64,000 nt of DNA from an uncultured Gammaproteobacteria bacterium (GCA_963844595.1 CAWJOW010000004.1:480157-544156), one strand, 5' to 3'; positions 7,063 through 28,390 are shown, counted from the stretch's first letter. The notes: generated from the sequence alone by a model not told the origin. Numbers and translations: made by a program.

Positions 7063-8264
7063 AGTTCGGGATCGACCGGCTGATCGAGGAGCCGGCGCTG
7101 CGCCGGCCGCTCGCAGGCCGGCGGGTCGCGCTGCTCGCACACCCGGCCTCGGTAACGCGGGATCTGACTCATTCCCTGGATGCGCTCGCACGGCTGCCGG
7201 AAGTGCATCTGACGTCGGCCTTCGGACCGCAGCACGGCTTGAAGGGCGATAAGCAATACAACATGGTCGAGTCGGCCGACGAGATCGACCCGGTGTATCG
7301 GATCCCGGTGTACAGCCTTTATGGCGCGGTGCGCCGCCCGACCGCGGCGATGATGGACAGCTTCGACGTGCTGCTCGTCGACCTGCAGGACCTGGGCTGC
7401 CGGATCTATACATTCGTCACGACGCTGCGTTACGTACTCGAGGAAGCCGCGCGTGCCGGCAAGGCCGTGTGGGTGCTCGACCGCCCGAATCCCGCCGGCC
7501 GGCCGGTGGAGGGCCTCACACTGCGGCCGGGCTGGGAGAGCTTCGTCGGCGCGGGCGCCTTGCCCATGCGCCACGGTCTCACCCTGGGGGAGCTCGCGCG
7601 CTGGTTCGTCGCGACGCTGCGCCTCAAGATCGACTGCCAGGTCGTGACCATGGAGGGCTGGCAGCCGCAGATCGCGCCCGGCTACGGCTGGCCGCAGGGC
7701 GAGCGCTCCTGGGTGAACCCGAGCCCGAACGCGCAGAACCAGTCGATGGCGCGCTGCTATGCCGGTTCGGTGATGCTCGAAGGGACGACGCTGTCAGAAG
7801 GCCGCGGCACCACGCGACCGCTCGAGCTCGCCGGCGCACCGGAACTCGACGCGCCGGCGCTCCTCGCGCAGATGCGCGCGCTCGCGCCCGAATGGCTCGC
7901 AGGCTGCCGGCTGCGTCCCTGCTGGTTCGAGCCCACTTTTAACAAGCACACCGGCAAGCTCTGCGCAGGCTTCCAGGTGCATGTCGACGCCGCGGCGGTT
8001 TACGACCACGAGGCGTTTCGGCCCTGGCGGCTGTTCGCGCTCGCTTTCAAGGCGCTGCGTCGCCTGCAACCCGACTATCCCCTGTGGGCGGATTTTCACT
8101 ACGAGTACGAGCGTGACCGGCTGGCGATCGACGTCATCAGCGGCAGCGAACTGCTGCGACAGTGGGTCGACGATCCGGCGGCGACGCCTGCGGACCTTGA
8201 GGCGCTTGCAGGCAGGGACGAGGCGGCGTGGCGGGCGGAGCGCACCGCGCTCCTCTTGTATTAG
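7059..8264 (+). CDS. DUF1343 family protein (NamZ-like exo-beta-N-acetylmuramidase)
   Basis: GIDRL...RVALLAHPASV...FGPQHG...YSLYG...D.LLVDLQD.G.R.YT...LDRPNP...G..PMRHGLT.GELA is the characteristic DUF1343 string. Confidence 0.8.
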   Translation: MKFGIDRLIEEPALRRPLAGRRVALLAHPASVTRDLTHSLDALARLPEVHLTSAFGPQHGLKGDKQYNMVESADEIDPVYRIPVYSLYGAVRRPTAAMMDSFDVLLVDLQDLGCRIYTFVTTLRYVLEEAARAGKAVWVLDRPNPAGRPVEGLTLRPGWESFVGAGALPMRHGLTLGELARWFVATLRLKIDCQVVTMEGWQPQIAPGYGWPQGERSWVNPSPNAQNQSMARCYAGSVMLEGTTLSEGRGTTRPLELAGAPELDAPALLAQMRALAPEWLAGCRLRPCWFEPTFNKHTGKLCAGFQVHVDAAAVYDHEAFRPWRLFALAFKALRRLQPDYPLWADFHYEYERDRLAIDVISGSELLRQWVDDPAATPADLEALAGRDEAAWRAERTALLLY

Positions 8265-8296
8265 CGTGCCCGCACGCCGCGGCGGGAGCGGCGCGG

Positions 8297-8932
8297 CTAC
8301 TTGCGGAGGCAGGTCGCGTAGGGTGGCGGCTCGCCGGGCTGCGGCGCGCACACCCGGATGGGCCCGAGCGCCGCGAGGCGCTTCTCCCAGTAAGCGCGGT
8401 CGATCGCCGGCTTGTGCGGCGAGCCCGAGGCGCGCTCGGCCCACTGCAGGGTGTAGAAGTCCTTCGCGCCCTTCACCGCGAGCATCACCGCGGTCTCGCT
8501 GTAGCCCGACTTGCCCTGTACCCGCCCGCAGCTCGCGATGGTGACGAAGCCATCGTAGCCGTCGACGCTTCGCGGGCCGAGCTCATCCATGGCGAAGGTG
8601 TCCGGGCAGTGCCCCCTGAAGCTCGCCGCCATGCGCACCAGCAGCGCCTGCGGCGTGGCTCCGGCGCTCGTGGCCAGATCGCGTGTTCCCGTGAGCTCCA
8701 GCATCCGCGTCCACTGGTCCGCGCTCTCGCCGTCAGGCACGTGCTCGCGGATGTAGAACGAGCCGTTGTTGTGCTCGTCGGCGATCCTGAACTCCGCGGG
8801 CACGGAATACCGGATCAGCTGGCTGAAGACCGGGACGACCGTCGCCACGCCCGGCGGATCCGCCGCGAGTACCGCGGCAGCCGGCAGCAGGGCGAAGGCG
8901 ATCCGAGCAGCGACACTGGCGACTTGGCGCAT
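8297..8932 (-). CDS. hypothetical secreted protein
   Basis: Starting at MRQVASVAARIAFALLPAAAVLAADPP gives a Sec signal. No family was recognised. It is the last gene of a three-gene minus-strand cluster. Confidence 0.45.
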   Translation of the reverse strand: MRQVASVAARIAFALLPAAAVLAADPPGVATVVPVFSQLIRYSVPAEFRIADEHNNGSFYIREHVPDGESADQWTRMLELTGTRDLATSAGATPQALLVRMAASFRGHCPDTFAMDELGPRSVDGYDGFVTIASCGRVQGKSGYSETAVMLAVKGAKDFYTLQWAERASGSPHKPAIDRAYWEKRLAALGPIRVCAPQPGEPPPYATCLRK

Positions 8933-8990
8933 ATGGCTCAACTCCTGACTCCTGACCGGCGCGGGCACGCGGTAGCCTAGGGTCGTGCCG

Positions 8991-9404
8991 CTAATCTGGC
9001 AATGGAGCCGGCTCGTCCCAGGCGGGATCGGGCATGAGGAATGTGTGGCGTGCGGCCTCGCAGCCTAAGCGCTGCGGCCGATACCAGCGCGCCAGGATCG
9101 ACTTGCCGAGAAGGTCGGGGTTGGCGCGCGCGAAGGTCTCGAAGTCACTCGCCTCCGCACGCAGCATCCGCTCGGAGATCAGCGACAGGAAGGCGAGTGT
9201 GACCGTCAGGTTGAAGGCCTCGGGACGCCCGGCCTTCGCGAGCATGACGCGCAGCGCCCGCGAGCAATGCGTCAGTGACTCGGCAAACTCATGCCGGCGC
9301 AACAGCTCGAAGGCCATGCGCACGTGCTCCCGGTGCGTAAACGCATGCGGGTCGAGCTCGCCGCGCAGGAAGCGCGCCAGGTCGGGCGAATCATCCGGCT
9401 GCAT
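8991..9404 (-). CDS. hypothetical all-helical protein, partner of the upstream RHH gene
   Basis: It is a 137-aa ORF whose start overlaps the upstream gene by 14 nt. No family was recognised. Confidence 0.45.
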
Positions 9405-23735: not shown

Positions 23736-24380
23736 ATGTACCTGCCCGCTGACTTCAAGGAAACGAGCCTTCCGGTCCTGCACGCTCTGATAGGCGCGCA
23801 CCCGCTCGCGACGCTGGTGGCGGCGACCGCGGACGGGCTGGTTGCGAATCACATTCCGCTGCTGCTCGATGCGAGCGGGGAGCGCGCGGCGCTGCACGGC
23901 CACATCGCGCGCGCCAACCCGCTGTGGCAGCAGCTCGCGGACGGCAGCGAGGTGCTTGCCGTCTTCCACGGACCGGAGCATTACATCTCGCCGCGCTGGT
24001 ATCCCTCGAAGCGCGAGCATGGCCAGGTGGTGCCCACCTGGAATTACGCCGTGGTACACGCTCGCGGTGCGCTCAGCTGGCATCACGATGAGGCGTGGCT
24101 GCGGCAGCTCCTCGAGGCGCTCACCAGCCGTCACGAGAGCCGCTTTGCCGAACCCTGGCACGTGTCGGACGCTCCCCCCGAGTACCTGAGCAAGATGCTG
24201 GGCGCCATCGTCGGATTCGATATTCAGCTGCGCGAGCTGACCGGCAAGTGGAAGGCAAGTCAGAACCGCAGCGACGCCGACGTGCAGGGCGTGATCGCGG
24301 GACTGGCCGCCCTCGATGATGCGCCGGCGCGCGCCATGCGGACGCTGGTCGAGGAGTGCCGCAGCATGCGCCGCGGCTGA
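23736..24380 (+). CDS. FMN-binding negative transcriptional regulator (PaiB family)
   Basis: MYLPADFKE......LI..HPLATLV.....L.ANHIPLLL...G.L.GH.ARANP.W.......L..F.GP..YISP.WY and later WKASQNR are present. Confidence 0.8.
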   Translation: MYLPADFKETSLPVLHALIGAHPLATLVAATADGLVANHIPLLLDASGERAALHGHIARANPLWQQLADGSEVLAVFHGPEHYISPRWYPSKREHGQVVPTWNYAVVHARGALSWHHDEAWLRQLLEALTSRHESRFAEPWHVSDAPPEYLSKMLGAIVGFDIQLRELTGKWKASQNRSDADVQGVIAGLAALDDAPARAMRTLVEECRSMRRG

Positions 24381-24414
24381 CGGCGGGACCCGTCCGCGCG
24401 CAACGACACAGGAT

Positions 24415-24743
24415 TGGGCCCGGTAGGATTCGAACCTACGACCAAGGGATTCACTTCGCCCCGGCGTTTCCGCCGGGAGTGGACTATCTCTTCACCCGCG
24501 CACGCGCCCTGGATCGGCGCACCGTGCGTGTGGGTGCGGGATGCTCGTCAGCCTGTCATTAAGGGCACTCGAGCCCTCAGGTAGTCTCTGCACCTTCCGC
24601 CGGTGTACCGGCGGCTCGGCTCAGGGTTGCCATGGGATGCCCTCCCGAAGGTTTCCCTGAATTCATCCCGTCCACTCCGCGCGTTTCCGCGCGAAGGCAC
24701 CTTATCGATGAGTCCCCTGCACTAACCGCTGTGCTACAGGCCC
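24415..24743 (-). tRNA. tRNA-Ile2 (anticodon CAU, lysidine type) gene interrupted by a group I intron; exons 24708-24743 and 24415-24451
   Basis: Joined exons give GGGCCTGTAGCACAGCGGTTAGTGCAGGGGACTCAT|AATCCCTTGGTCGTAGGTTCGAATCCTACCGGGCCCA. This is a perfect cloverleaf: 7-bp acceptor with one G-U, D arm GCAC/GTGC, anticodon stem GGGGA/TCCCT, loop CTCATAA, T arm GTAGG/CCTAC with TTCGAAT. G1-C72 excludes an initiator. The overall sequence closely resembles E. coli ileX as I recall it. No CCA is encoded. Confidence 0.85.
24452..24707 (-). ncRNA. group I intron (IC3-like, Azoarcus tRNA-Ile intron type), 256 nt, no ORF
   Basis: It is inserted after anticodon position 36 (CAU|A). The internal guide GUG can pair with exon CAU, giving a U-G wobble at the splice site. 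A P2-like hairpin CGCGCG-GAAA-CGCGCG is present, together with the conserved strings AUGGCAAC, GAGCC and GAAGGUGCAGAGACUA (Azoarcus has GAAGGUGUAGAGACUA). The last nucleotide is G (24452). The 3' part is extended and ends in a CCGGCG-GAAA-CGCCGG hairpin. Confidence 0.8.
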
Positions 24744-24754
24744 AACCGCGCGCG

Positions 24755-24760
24755 ATTGTA
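24755..24760 (-). promoter_or_regulatory. candidate -10 box (TACAAT) for the tRNA gene
   Basis: TACAAT lies on the minus strand 12 nt upstream of the tRNA 5' end. The -35 is weak (CTGGTG). Confidence 0.35.
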
Positions 24761-24978
24761 ACAGCCTGCTGCGCACTCACCAGCCGGAAGGTGGCGTTGT
24801 GCGCCGGCGCAGAGCGTGGGCTTGGAATCGGCCGGCTGTCCGGGCAGGCCGCAAGGGCGACGGCCGCGGTGACGAGCGCCATCGTGATCACGAGCGACTT
24901 CATGGCAGGCTCCCTCTTGCCATCGCTGTCGATGTCGCTAGCATGACTCTCCTGCGGCGCAAATGCCAAGGAGAGAAC

Positions 24979-25590
24979 ATGAAGCTCTACTACATGCCCG
25001 GCGCATGCGCGCTGGCGTGCAACATCGCGCTCCGTGAGGCCGGACTCAGGTTCGAGCTTGTCAAAGTCGACCGCAAAACCCGGCGCGCCGCGGACGGCCT
25101 CGACTACAACGAGGTCAACTCCAAGGGCTACGTGCCCGCGCTCACTCTCGACAACGGCGAGGTCCTCACCGAGAACCTCGCCGTGCTGCAATACATCGCC
25201 GACCGAAATCCGGCCGCGAAGCTCGCGCCAGCGGCGGGCACGATAGAGCGCTACCGCCTGGAGGAATGGCTGAGCTTCATCAATTCCGAGTTGCACAAGG
25301 CGGGCTACACGCCGCTGTTTCGCCAGGACGCCCCCGAGGCCGCCAAGGACTACGCACGCAAGACTCTGACCGGTCGACTCGACTGGCTGGAGCGTTCGTG
25401 GGGCTCCAGGTCCTTTCTTTTGGGCGAGCAGTTCACCGTCGCCGACGCCTACCTGTGGGTGGTGCTCGGCTGGGGCACACATGTCGACATGGACGTAGCC
25501 CGCTGGCCGCAGCTGAAGCGTTTCCACGAGCGTGTCGCGGCACGCCCCACCGTCATCGAGGCACTCAAGTCCGAGGCCCGGGCCGGATAG
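24979..25590 (+). CDS. glutathione S-transferase (beta class, GstA-like)
   Basis: MKLYYMPGACALACNIALREAGL.FELVKVD...........Y.EVN.KGYVPAL.LDNGEVLTEN.A.LQYIAD is close to E. coli Gst. An AAGGAG RBS is present. Confidence 0.9.
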   Translation: MKLYYMPGACALACNIALREAGLRFELVKVDRKTRRAADGLDYNEVNSKGYVPALTLDNGEVLTENLAVLQYIADRNPAAKLAPAAGTIERYRLEEWLSFINSELHKAGYTPLFRQDAPEAAKDYARKTLTGRLDWLERSWGSRSFLLGEQFTVADAYLWVVLGWGTHVDMDVARWPQLKRFHERVAARPTVIEALKSEARAG

Positions 25591-25687
25591 ACTATACCCG
25601 GGCCGGGATGCGGACGTCGCCGGTGACCGCCGGCGGTTTGCGCTGTTACCATCTGCAGCGTGCAGGGTTTGCACGTGAGAGGACGCA

Positions 25688-25900
25688 ATGGCTACCAAAC
25701 TCAACAAACAACTCAAGCGCGAGATCGACGTGGATGGCAAGCCCTACATGGTCACGCTCTCGCCGGAGGGACTGAAGCTCACGGAGAAGGGTAAACGGCT
25801 GGGACAGGAGCACAGCTGGAAGGAGCTGCTCGGCGTCGCGCCCTCAGCCGCCACCTCGGCTCCAGGCCCCTCCGGCAGCGGGTTCGGCGGACCCGGCTGA
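25688..25900 (+). CDS. small hypothetical protein (70 aa)
   Basis: It has an ATG start and a Lys-rich N-terminal half with a Gly/Ser/Pro tail. No family was recognised. Confidence 0.35.
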   Translation: MATKLNKQLKREIDVDGKPYMVTLSPEGLKLTEKGKRLGQEHSWKELLGVAPSAATSAPGPSGSGFGGPG

Positions 25901-25923
25901 GGCGCAGGCGCCCACGGTGCGCC

Positions 25924-26175
25924 GTGACTGAGGAGAGTCTGCGCGAGCGGCTGTCGCGGGTGCGCGAGCGGCTGAGCGCTGCTGCCCTCGACCGCGAGTC
26001 GCACAAGCTGTTCGCCGCCGTAATCCGCGACATTGAGATCGCGCTCGGCTCAGGCACCGCGGCTGCCCAGGCGCCGCGGCTGGAGTCGCTGGCGGCGAAG
26101 TTCGAGGCAAGTCATCCGCAGCTGGCGGAGACGATGCGAGAGCTCAACGACGCACTGGTCAAAGCCGGTATCTAG
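25924..26175 (+). CDS. small helical hypothetical protein (DUF4404-like)
   Basis: It is an 83-aa ORF (GTG start) with LRERL..VRERL... and ...FEASHPQLAETMRELNDALVKAGI, resembling DUF4404 from memory. Confidence 0.4.
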   Translation: MTEESLRERLSRVRERLSAAALDRESHKLFAAVIRDIEIALGSGTAAAQAPRLESLAAKFEASHPQLAETMRELNDALVKAGI

Positions 26176-26209
26176 TTAATTGGCGGAAACGGCCCGCGGC
26201 CGCGTTCGC

Positions 26210-28390
<2,181 letters not shown>

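Follow-up and report, generated by a model that had tools for sequence, protein, structure and literature searches.

The window (the whole stretch of 64,000 nucleotides that was analyzed) contains, on its minus strand at positions 24415-24743, a tRNA(CAU) gene in which a group I intron of 256 nt (24452-24707) is inserted between tRNA nucleotides 36 and 37. The precursor reads GGGCCUGUAGCACAGCGGUUAGUGCAGGGGACUCAU, followed by the 256 nt of the intron and by AAUCCCUUGGUCGUAGGUUCGAAUCCUACCGGGCCCA. The 5' exon (24708-24743, minus strand) comprises tRNA nucleotides 1-36 and ends with C34-A35-U36; it is conserved in 19 homologous loci among the matches listed, all of which end with ...GGACTCAT. The intron starts with CGAUAAGGUGCC and ends with ...GAAGUG, its last nucleotide being the omega-G at 24452, and it was assigned by an Rfam search, a test of splice registers, covariation and translation. 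The 3' exon (24415-24451, minus strand) comprises tRNA nucleotides 37-73 and reads AAUCCCUUGGUCG...GGGCCCA, as seen from the sequence, the ARAGORN fold and the homologues. The CCA end is not encoded in the tRNA of the window or in that of locus L078, but it is encoded in most relatives among the matches listed. A six-frame translation of the 256-nt intron did not reveal any ORF of useful size.

Excision of 24452-24707 yields a product of 73 nt, which ARAGORN folds into a canonical cloverleaf with the anticodon CAT. The Rfam model RF00028 (Intron_gpI) matched positions 24460-24720 on the minus strand with 62.9 bits (E=1.3e-13), compared to a gathering score of 50 bits, and the match extended over model positions 1-253 of 253. 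It was the only Rfam family detected in the whole 64-kb window. The preliminary description of the locus had predicted a tRNA(CAU) cloverleaf after removal of exactly this segment, a G as the last intron nucleotide and the lack of a homing endonuclease ORF, and it had named a search with the Rfam model as a check. All three predictions hold, the coordinates are exact to the nucleotide, the splice register that gives the terminal G is unique, and the Rfam match is significant.

The register of splicing was analyzed separately. With default settings, ARAGORN found no tRNA in the 64-kb window. When introns were allowed, it reported the same 256-nt gap two bases upstream and called the gene tRNA-Gln(CUG). 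For the placement of the intron the ARAGORN calls were replaced by a test for a register with U(-1) and omega-G. Eight registers with a 256-nt intron were tested, and only 36/37 resulted in U(-1) together with G(omega); the same register results in the anticodon CAU. A tRNA-Gln(CUG) with the intron after nucleotide 34 is extremely improbable. It has C(-1)/G(omega), and the intron option of ARAGORN yields Gln(ctg) i(36,256) not only for the window, but also for about 13 homologues. However, this register offers neither a U-G wobble nor a pairing partner for GGUG, the invariant guide, the combination U(-1)/G(omega) is given by 36/37 only, and the tRNA body is identical to E. coli tRNA-Gln at 47-49 of 70 positions, versus 55-57 of 73 positions for E. 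coli ileX. In addition, a mis-registration by ARAGORN of exactly this kind has been described and corrected before (Williams 2020, 10.1101/2020.01.27.920355).

The anticodon CAU does not by itself distinguish tRNA-Ile2 from elongator tRNA-Met, and therefore the body of the tRNA and the gene neighborhood were compared with E. coli. The best full-length match of the spliced sequence in all E. coli genomes was an annotated tRNA-Ile (82% over 73/73 nucleotides). An ungapped comparison with ileX of E. coli K-12, which encodes tRNA-Ile(CAU), revealed 57 identities in 73 positions, an equal length of the D-loop and an identical segment ACUCAUAAUC...CUUGGUCG. The values for the K-12 genes metT/metU and glnV/glnX were 50/72 and 47/70, respectively. 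The acceptor stem has the pairs C4-G69 and C5-G68, as in ileX, whereas metT has U4-A69 and A5-U68; the two C-G pairs are presumably determinants for TilS. The spliced tRNA has a G1-C72 pair, and thus it is not an initiator tRNA. Upstream of the gene and on the same strand is rpoD (26210-28390, minus strand, identified with Pfam), and a GST gene (24799-25590, plus strand, identified with Pfam) is situated between the two. This order parallels dnaG-rpoD-mug(-)-ileX in the annotation of E. coli K-12, and a split tRNA gene adjoins rpoD in 11 of the 19 homologous loci among the matches listed.

An elongator tRNA-Met is thus an unlikely host of the intron. ARAGORN labels the spliced product tRNA-Met(cat), and the 50 identities with metT are not negligible; yet ileX is closer in sequence and D-loop length, the best annotated match in E. 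coli is a tRNA-Ile, the acceptor stem pairs and the position beside rpoD are those of ileX, and the exons agree with the Ile2 loci that carry an intron of the Azoarcus type. Based on the similarity (78%, versus 69% for Met), the synteny and the acceptor stem pairs, we conclude that the host should be a tRNA-Ile2 and the positional counterpart of ileX. The codon AUA occurs twice among the 2,045 codons of five confident genes in the window; it is rare but present, and therefore the tRNA is still needed.

Homologous introns were searched with the 16-mer GAAGGTGNAGAGACTA, which covers J6/7-P7, in one genome per GTDB species. At least 120 loci in many phyla were found, most of which are introns in tRNA genes, i.e., those for Leu-UAA, Arg-CCU/UCU, Thr, Asn, Phe and fMet/Met, and at site 3 of tRNA(CAU). 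The matches listed include 19 tRNA(CAU) genes that are split at 36/37. In all 19 of these Ile2 loci the 5' exon ends with U, and wherever the 3' splice site was mapped (18 homologous loci) the intron ends with G. Fourteen of the listed matches are from Gammaproteobacteria and could be aligned in full length with the precursor of the window at 67-90% identity. They belong to Steroidobacteraceae, Rhodanobacteraceae, Lysobacter daejeonensis, Woeseiaceae and several MAGs, and all 14 retain the junctions ...GGACUCAU|...G|AAUCC.

The closest locus among the matches listed was L085 from a Steroidobacteraceae MAG, with 78% nucleotide identity over 5.4 kb, 92.5% amino acid identity of RpoD and 90% identity of the intron. 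L078 was also among the closest (RpoD 90% at the amino acid level, intron 89%). The similarity to these two loci places the host, as far as it can be read from the sequence, near the Steroidobacteraceae, probably as a high-GC gammaproteobacterium. In the syntenic loci the identity of the intron roughly follows that of RpoD. The syntenic position and this parallel suggest that the intron has been inherited mostly vertically within the Gammaproteobacteria.

For the analysis of the ribozyme structure the intron of the window was aligned with 13 complete gammaproteobacterial homologues from the matches listed, resulting in an alignment of 14 sequences. An explicit group I topology was used, which comprised P2, P3, P4, P5, P6, P6a, the pseudoknotted P7, a helix between P7 and P3' (termed P7.1 below), P8, P9.0 and P9. 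A structure derived with RNAalifold alone was rejected, because it lacked the P3/P7 pseudoknot; GCC of P6 was wrongly paired with GGC, and AGGUG was wrongly paired with a segment of P7.

All elements are on the minus strand. P1 (24698-24710) is formed by C34-A35-U36 of the exon together with intron nucleotide C1 (24710-24707) and the guide G7-G8-U9-G10 (24701-24698), with a GAUAA loop, as read from the sequence. The internal guide is GGUG at intron positions 7-10, and U36 and G8 form a wobble pair at the 5' splice site. The preliminary description had proposed that a guide GUG pairs with the exon CAU and that a U-G wobble is formed; this pairing is confirmed, and the guide is invariant in the 14 sequences. 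Extensions of P1 of variable length occur in L107, L105 and L041, and the pairing is retained in them. P2 (24676-24695) carries a GAAA tetraloop L2 (24687-24684), and all of its eight pairs have compensatory changes. The 5' strand of P3, CGGGAUG (24664-24670), pairs over 7 bp with the 3' strand CAUCCCG (24537-24543), which was located with the covariation alignment; it is 100% paired in the 14 sequences. The P4-P5-P6/P6a domain spans 24592-24660, with P4 at 24660-55/24626-21, P5 at 24651-24630, P6 at 24620-18/24594-92 and P6a at 24614-24597. P4, P5 and P6 are paired without any variation in sequence, and P6a has four compensatory pairs. P5 is a simple hairpin without P5abc, in a small, ORF-less intron of 256 nt. 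The guanosine-binding helix P7, which is pseudoknotted with P3, consists of GACUA (24582-24586) and UAGUC (24482-24486) and is 100% paired; its 3' strand, located with the covariation alignment, is preceded by J8/7 with the sequence GAAGAGA. P7.1 (24552-24581) has the sequence CCUG-A-GGGC-UCGAGU-GCCC-UUAAUGA-CAGG and is present in all 14 gammaproteobacterial homologues. It is followed, after the 3' strand of P3, by an extended P8 of 44 nt (24493-24536), which has compensatory changes and a local folding energy of -24.4 kcal/mol. The 3' part (24452-24480) contains P9.0 (24480-79 with 24454-53), P9 with an invariant GAAA loop (24477-24460, six compensatory pairs) and the omega-G at 24452. The P9.0 pair just before the omega-G (alignment columns 303/331) varies between AU, GU and GC. 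For P10 no convincing conservation was found; a possible pairing of G2-A3-U4 with A38-U39-C40 exists in the window only.

In the 14 sequences, 98.4% of the cells of this explicit structure contain standard pairs, and all helices including the P3-P7 core can be drawn, as the preliminary description had expected for a true group I intron. Double-sided changes were found in 27 of the 66 pairs. None of 500 column shuffles reached the observed values, and pairing dropped to 36-44% in a control in which the 3' partners were slid by 1-3 columns. Compensatory changes are plentiful in P2, P6a, P8 and P9. P3, P4, P6 and P7 do not vary and are paired in every sequence; the support for P3, P4 and P7 therefore comes from pairing and from the Rfam model, and not from covariation within the family. 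Also invariant are the guide GGUG, the GAAA of L9 and the terminal G, and L2 is always of the type G-N-N-A.

These results bear on the question of whether the intron is still active. It could be a decayed relic that has lost self-splicing, in which case the gene would be a pseudogene or would depend on a protein cofactor. The lack of a homing endonuclease would fit to such a relic, and so would the low demand for the tRNA that follows from the very low frequency of AUA (2/2,045 codons in five genes). However, all core elements are intact, compensatory changes keep the peripheral helices paired across 14 species, the guide, P7, L9 GAAA and the omega-G are invariant, the exons are conserved and AUA codons are still in use. 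Furthermore, there are other genomes in which no gene for tRNA-Ile2 apart from the split one was found (PMC8450103). Decay is thus very unlikely, and from the conservation we infer that the intron would be self-splicing. Taken together, the locus is best described as a split tRNA-Ile2(CAU) gene with an ORF-less group I intron at 36/37, which is the rpoD-linked counterpart of ileX in a gammaproteobacterial host, and we assign a probability of about 0.9 to this reading.

A scheme for splicing can be proposed, in which the elements are derived from sequence and covariation and the chemistry is adopted by analogy from the pre-tRNA-Ile of Azoarcus (PMC13168695, PMC3984707). In P1, C34-A35-U36 and C1 would pair with GGUG, including the U36-G8 wobble. 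An exogenous guanosine bound in the P7 pocket (GACUA/UAGUC) would attack after U36. Then G256, positioned by P9.0, would occupy this pocket in its turn, and an attack by the 5' exon after G256 would follow. The exons would be ligated to the 73-nt tRNA, and the intron would be released. CCA addition would follow splicing; it would be needed because the gene lacks an encoded CCA end. TilS would probably also convert C34 to lysidine only after splicing, because in the unspliced RNA C34 is predicted to pair with G10 in P1, there is no anticodon loop, and a lysidine at this position would be unable to pair with G. The preliminary description had stated that splicing and the action of TilS must be ordered, which is reasonable.

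That tRNA-Ile2 genes can harbor group I introns has been known since 1992. The preliminary description had regarded introns of this kind as rare outside of cyanobacteria and a few proteobacteria. This view is outdated, because a survey of about 80,000 genomes has mapped 5,292 tRNA genes with group I introns, which fall into 21 settings (Williams, bioRxiv 2020, 10.1101/2020.01.27.920355), and one scan in the present study already yielded at least 120 loci. One of the four classical settings is Ile2.5Ug, in which the intron of tRNA-Ile2 follows loop nucleotide 5 and the splice sites have U(-1) as well as G(omega) (10.1101/2020.01.27.920355). The window has a tRNA-Ile2(CAU) host, an insertion at 36/37 and U(-1)/G(omega), and the homologues have the same junction. 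The intron is therefore a further representative of a class that is common and has been known for a long time. Genomes that seem to lack tRNA-Ile2 owing to a group I intron, e.g., those of Acidovorax and Burkholderia, have been discussed in the tRNAscan-SE 2.0 paper (PMC8450103), and there, as in the window, standard tRNA finders miss the split gene. A P7.1-type hairpin like that of the window is also present in the Burkholderiales loci L038, L047 and L052. The Burkholderiales introns in tRNA-Ile2 differ in that they are from Betaproteobacteria and not from Gammaproteobacteria, and they reach 61-73 bits with a profile built from the family of the window.

The best-studied point of reference is the intron in the pre-tRNA-Ile of Azoarcus, and the similarities are extensive. 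Both introns have the same host tRNA, the insertion after U36, the CAU/GUG pairing with the U-G wobble, the omega-G, no ORF, and GAAA in L2 as well as in L9. The P7 strands GACUA/UAGUC are identical in Azoarcus (seed alignment of Williams) and the window, J6/7 is nearly identical (GAAGGUGNAGAGACUA), and the strings GUGCC, AUGGCAAC and GAGCC occur in both.

The two introns differ in several other elements. Between GACUA of P7 and CAUCCCG of P3' there are 38 nt in the window, including a hairpin of 30 nt, and only GAC in Azoarcus. P8 has a length of 44 nt in the window and of 23 nt in Azoarcus. In Azoarcus, L2 docks into P8/P8a with the CCUAAG/UAUGG receptor, and L9 docks into P5/P5a (PMC4333387). 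In P8 of the window (CACCCACACGCACGG...CGUGCGCGGGUG) neither of the receptor strings CCUAAG and UAUGG was found; several relatives carry CCCUAAC/GAGGG in P8. J3/4-P4 is AAUUCAGGG in the window and AAAUUCGGCG in Azoarcus, and J8/7 is GAAGAGA in the window and GAAGGCA in Azoarcus. As the preliminary description had stated, the intron is about 50 nt longer than the Azoarcus ribozyme of about 205 nt (256 versus 205 nt, a surplus of 51 nt). The additional nucleotides had been attributed to the P9 side, but they are actually located in the hairpin between P7 and P3' (about 35 nt including a linker) and in the longer P8 (about 21 nt); P2, P5 and P6 are slightly shorter than in Azoarcus, and P9 has essentially the same size.

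The profile of the window family gave the same picture. Its own members scored 178-218 bits, and P7.1-bearing introns of other tRNAs as well as the Burkholderiales introns in tRNA-Ile2 scored 57-73 bits over the full length. The Azoarcus intron reached 24.7 bits, and only its 5' half was matched (profile positions 10-126); downstream of P7 the window cannot be aligned with Azoarcus. The earlier designation "Azoarcus-like" is thus correct for the host tRNA, the insertion site and the core strings, but not for the peripheral architecture, i.e., P7.1, the long P8, the lack of the P8 receptor and the restriction of the profile match to the 5' half. By its predicted structure, the ribozyme of the window is of a widespread P7.1-bearing architecture, which is also found in other tRNAs and in phage genes such as psbA of S-PM2, and not of the Azoarcus IC3 type.

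The hairpin P7.1 was compared in more distant introns. In the window it has the form CCUG-A-GGGC...GCCC-UUAAUGA-CAGG...GAGCAUCCCG, i.e., a single hairpin with a (U)AAU(R)A bulge, which is followed by AGCRYCC as P3'. Compensatory changes occur in the distal stem among the gammaproteobacterial homologues. The basal stem covaries between lineages (CUGG/CCAG, GGGUG/CACCC and GCGGGG/CCCCGC), while the (U)AAU(R)A motif on the 3' strand is constant. A helix between P7 and P3' is annotated in the seed alignment of Williams for introns of the settings Leu.1Ug, Lys.2Ug, Asn.4Ug and Phe.2Ug (10.1101/2020.01.27.920355). The respective seeds Mga42.Leu.1Ug, Dba165.Lys.2Ug, Pam37.Asn.4Ug and Mba55.Phe.2Ug resemble the window in having this helix with a (U)AAUAA motif on the 3' strand, after which P3' AGCG(U/C)CC and AUGA(G/U)AUAGUCC follow; they differ in their host tRNAs and in the insertion positions within the anticodon loop. 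We infer that P7.1 is a stabilizing peripheral element of the P3-P8 domain.

Two further patterns were considered for this region and do not fit. Introns of subgroup IA2 contain P7.1 and P7.2 joined by G-U-A (PMC3428280). In the intron of the window there is just a single hairpin, and the GUA linker is lacking, so that the IA2 pattern is not present. An IA2-like pattern does occur in other fetched loci, e.g., in Asn(GUU) introns such as L067 and L005. The internal loop of P7.1 was also inspected for a kink-turn or box C/D-like fold, and this idea was dropped, because neither the 3-nt bulge nor the register of the tandem G-A pairs fits. The internal loop has the sequence CUGA / UGAUGA in several relatives and UUAAUGA in the window.

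The fetched loci fall into two architectures downstream of AGAGACUA, either a direct connection GAC-P3' or a hairpin between P7 and P3'. The direct type, which has a P8 with CCUAAG/UAUGG, was found in Azoarcus and in the Ile2 loci L003 and L116. The P7.1 type was found in the window and in 16 other Ile2 loci, and thus in 17 of the 19 Ile2 loci among the matches listed. Three of these are the Burkholderiales loci L038, L047 and L052, and both types occur within the Burkholderiales. When the J3/4 length was tabulated against the architecture with a regular expression, the noise prevented a general separation of the types, and the table was used only for individual Ile2 sequences.

Introns with the same 16-mer are also present in phages. 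In IMG/VR at least 120 matches were obtained; among the 120 listed, 100 show an architecture other than the direct one, and split tRNAs number only about 17. The introns on these phage contigs matched the profile of the window family from P3 to P9 with 58-91 bits, the best listed ones with 75-91 bits. The viral contig L136 contains, beside a tRNA-Glu, a tRNA(CAU) in which a P7.1-type intron of 231 nt occupies the same position. In GenBank phages, positions 87-156 of the intron match the psbA intron of cyanophage S-PM2 and a terminase intron of Vibrio phage 11895-B1. The S-PM2 intron has nearly the same P7.1 (CCUGAGGGAUAUAGUUCCCUUAAUAACAGG), it shares CGGAUGAAUU (P3-J3/4), AGCGUCCGA (P3') and GAUGAUAUAGUCC (J8/7-P7') with the window, and downstream of P7 it is collinear with the window and identical at 72 of 97 positions. 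It differs in that it resides in a protein-coding phage gene, is AT-rich and has no clear P2 hairpin and only a short P8; F-CphI, a free-standing endonuclease, is associated with it.

The 5' part of the intron is identical to Azoarcus at 93 of 115 positions and to S-PM2 at 73 of 100 positions. Together with the similarity of the 3' part to S-PM2, this could suggest a mosaic intron with a 5' part near Azoarcus and a 3' part near S-PM2. However, the 5' part has a J3/4-P4 signature that is not that of Azoarcus, and GC-rich stems inflate the raw identity in this region. With regard to the host gene, tRNA-Ile2 may have been colonized more than once, or a single lineage may have acquired or lost P7.1. 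It is tentatively proposed, at somewhat less than even odds, that the 36/37 site of tRNA-Ile2 in Proteobacteria is held by two ribozyme lineages, namely the IC3 type of Azoarcus and a P7.1 type, the nearest relatives of which outside tRNA-Ile2 are introns of other tRNAs, of phage genes and of phage tRNAs. If this is true, a site that is set by little more than CAU/GUG would have been subject to repeated colonization or replacement, possibly by phage-borne introns, and the model ribozyme of Azoarcus would be atypical of its own class.

The results have consequences for genome annotation and for the comparative analysis of ribozymes. Standard finders overlook or mislabel the gene (with ARAGORN no tRNA or a tRNA-Gln(CUG) is reported), and thus the genome would seem to lack the essential decoder of AUA. 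Most of the sampled tRNA-Ile2 introns among the matches listed are built unlike that of Azoarcus, and they share P7.1 with phage introns. They constitute a natural set of variants for the study of the substitution of peripheral elements, and they offer a lead on the movement of ORF-less introns between sites.

The split tRNA-Ile2(CAU) gene of the window lies in a gene neighbourhood that is also present in Escherichia coli. In both cases rpoD is followed by one gene on the opposite strand and then by tRNA-Ile2 on the rpoD strand, and thus the rpoD-GST-tRNA arrangement at 24415-28390 has the same layout as rpoD-mug-ileX of E. coli K-12 (L122, 3211000-3216500; L numbers denote the fetched loci). 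Among the matches listed, the split tRNA adjoined rpoD in 11 of the 19 homologous loci, and these 11 include the Polynucleobacter locus L003, the intron of which is Azoarcus-type, i.e., P3' directly follows P7 and GAC.

Two features in the direct vicinity of the window intron were also considered. First, an ORF of 387 codons on the minus strand (24577-25740) overlaps the intron and is antisense to the GST gene. No Pfam family matched it, and since such ORFs often arise by chance in DNA of 68-70% GC, it most likely has no other origin. Second, a possible -10 element, TACAAT (24755-24760, minus strand), precedes the 5' end of the mature tRNA by 11 nt. It is not accompanied by a convincing -35 element, and the scan for promoters gave no prediction on the minus strand.

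Introns of a different structure were found in further bacterial tRNA genes. On seven genome contigs (L067, L005, L096, L053, L093, L108, and L111) two hairpins joined by a G-U-A linker are located 3' of P7, e.g., GAGCGAGAGCUC-GUA-CUUCGGCG... This double hairpin is found in introns of tRNA-Asn(GUU) and of some Phe, Asp, and Thr genes, in Elusimicrobia, Eubacteriales, and Patescibacteria. Two hairpins joined by G-U-A after P7 have been described as diagnostic for subgroup IA2 (PMC3428280), and, therefore, IC3 is not the only subgroup among the introns of bacterial tRNA genes.

In two loci the core was present twice. In a Lachnospiraceae MAG (L057, 4139-4465, plus strand) the copies are in direct orientation at a distance of 311 nt, and the sequence downstream of them is identical. 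In L016 one copy is on the plus strand (5651) and the other on the minus strand (6134), at a distance of about 480 nt. These pairs could represent tandem or neighbouring split genes. The core string was also found on MAG contigs that are archaeal by binning only, i.e., Pacearchaeota, Woesearchaeota, and Methanosarcinaceae (L012, L049, L051, and L075). L012 is a tRNA-Asn(GUU) gene split at site 2; a similar Pacearchaeota case has been suspected to be mis-binned (Williams 2020, 10.1101/2020.01.27.920355).

The IC3-type core string GAAGGTGNAGAGACTA was very common on viral contigs, with at least 120 matches (L124-L243), and about 100 of those listed are outside recognisable tRNAs. A recurrent family (L143, L191, L209, L163, L184, L221, L146, L133, L225, and others) shares flanks that are nearly identical, which suggests that one conserved phage gene may host these introns. 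According to a 2014 review, all phage introns observed until then were in genes that encode proteins. The IMG/VR contig IMGVR_UViG_3300028914_001983 (L136, about 8260-9260), viral by database label, carries a tRNA(CAU) with a 231-nt group I intron after U36, which is P7.1-type, i.e., it has a hairpin between P7 and P3' as in the window, and scores below the Rfam gathering score. An intact tRNA-Glu is located about 500 nt upstream. On a further viral contig (L155, about 770-1250) an Azoarcus-type intron of 205 nt, ending in ...CACAAACCGG followed by AAUCC, interrupts an unusual tRNA-like sequence of 86 nt, which has the anticodon CAU and a long extra arm.

Without the intron option, ARAGORN did not detect the split tRNA-Ile2 gene. 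With this option, the wrong register was systematically assigned to the introns, both in the window (24350-24800, minus strand) and in L004, L028, L030, L038, L041, L042, L052, L068, L078, L089, L103, L105-L107, and L120, and the genes were labelled tRNA-Gln(CUG), Gln(UUG), or Arg(CCG). Genomes with a split tRNA-Ile2 that are annotated automatically will thus seem to lack the AUA decoder or to contain a spurious tRNA.
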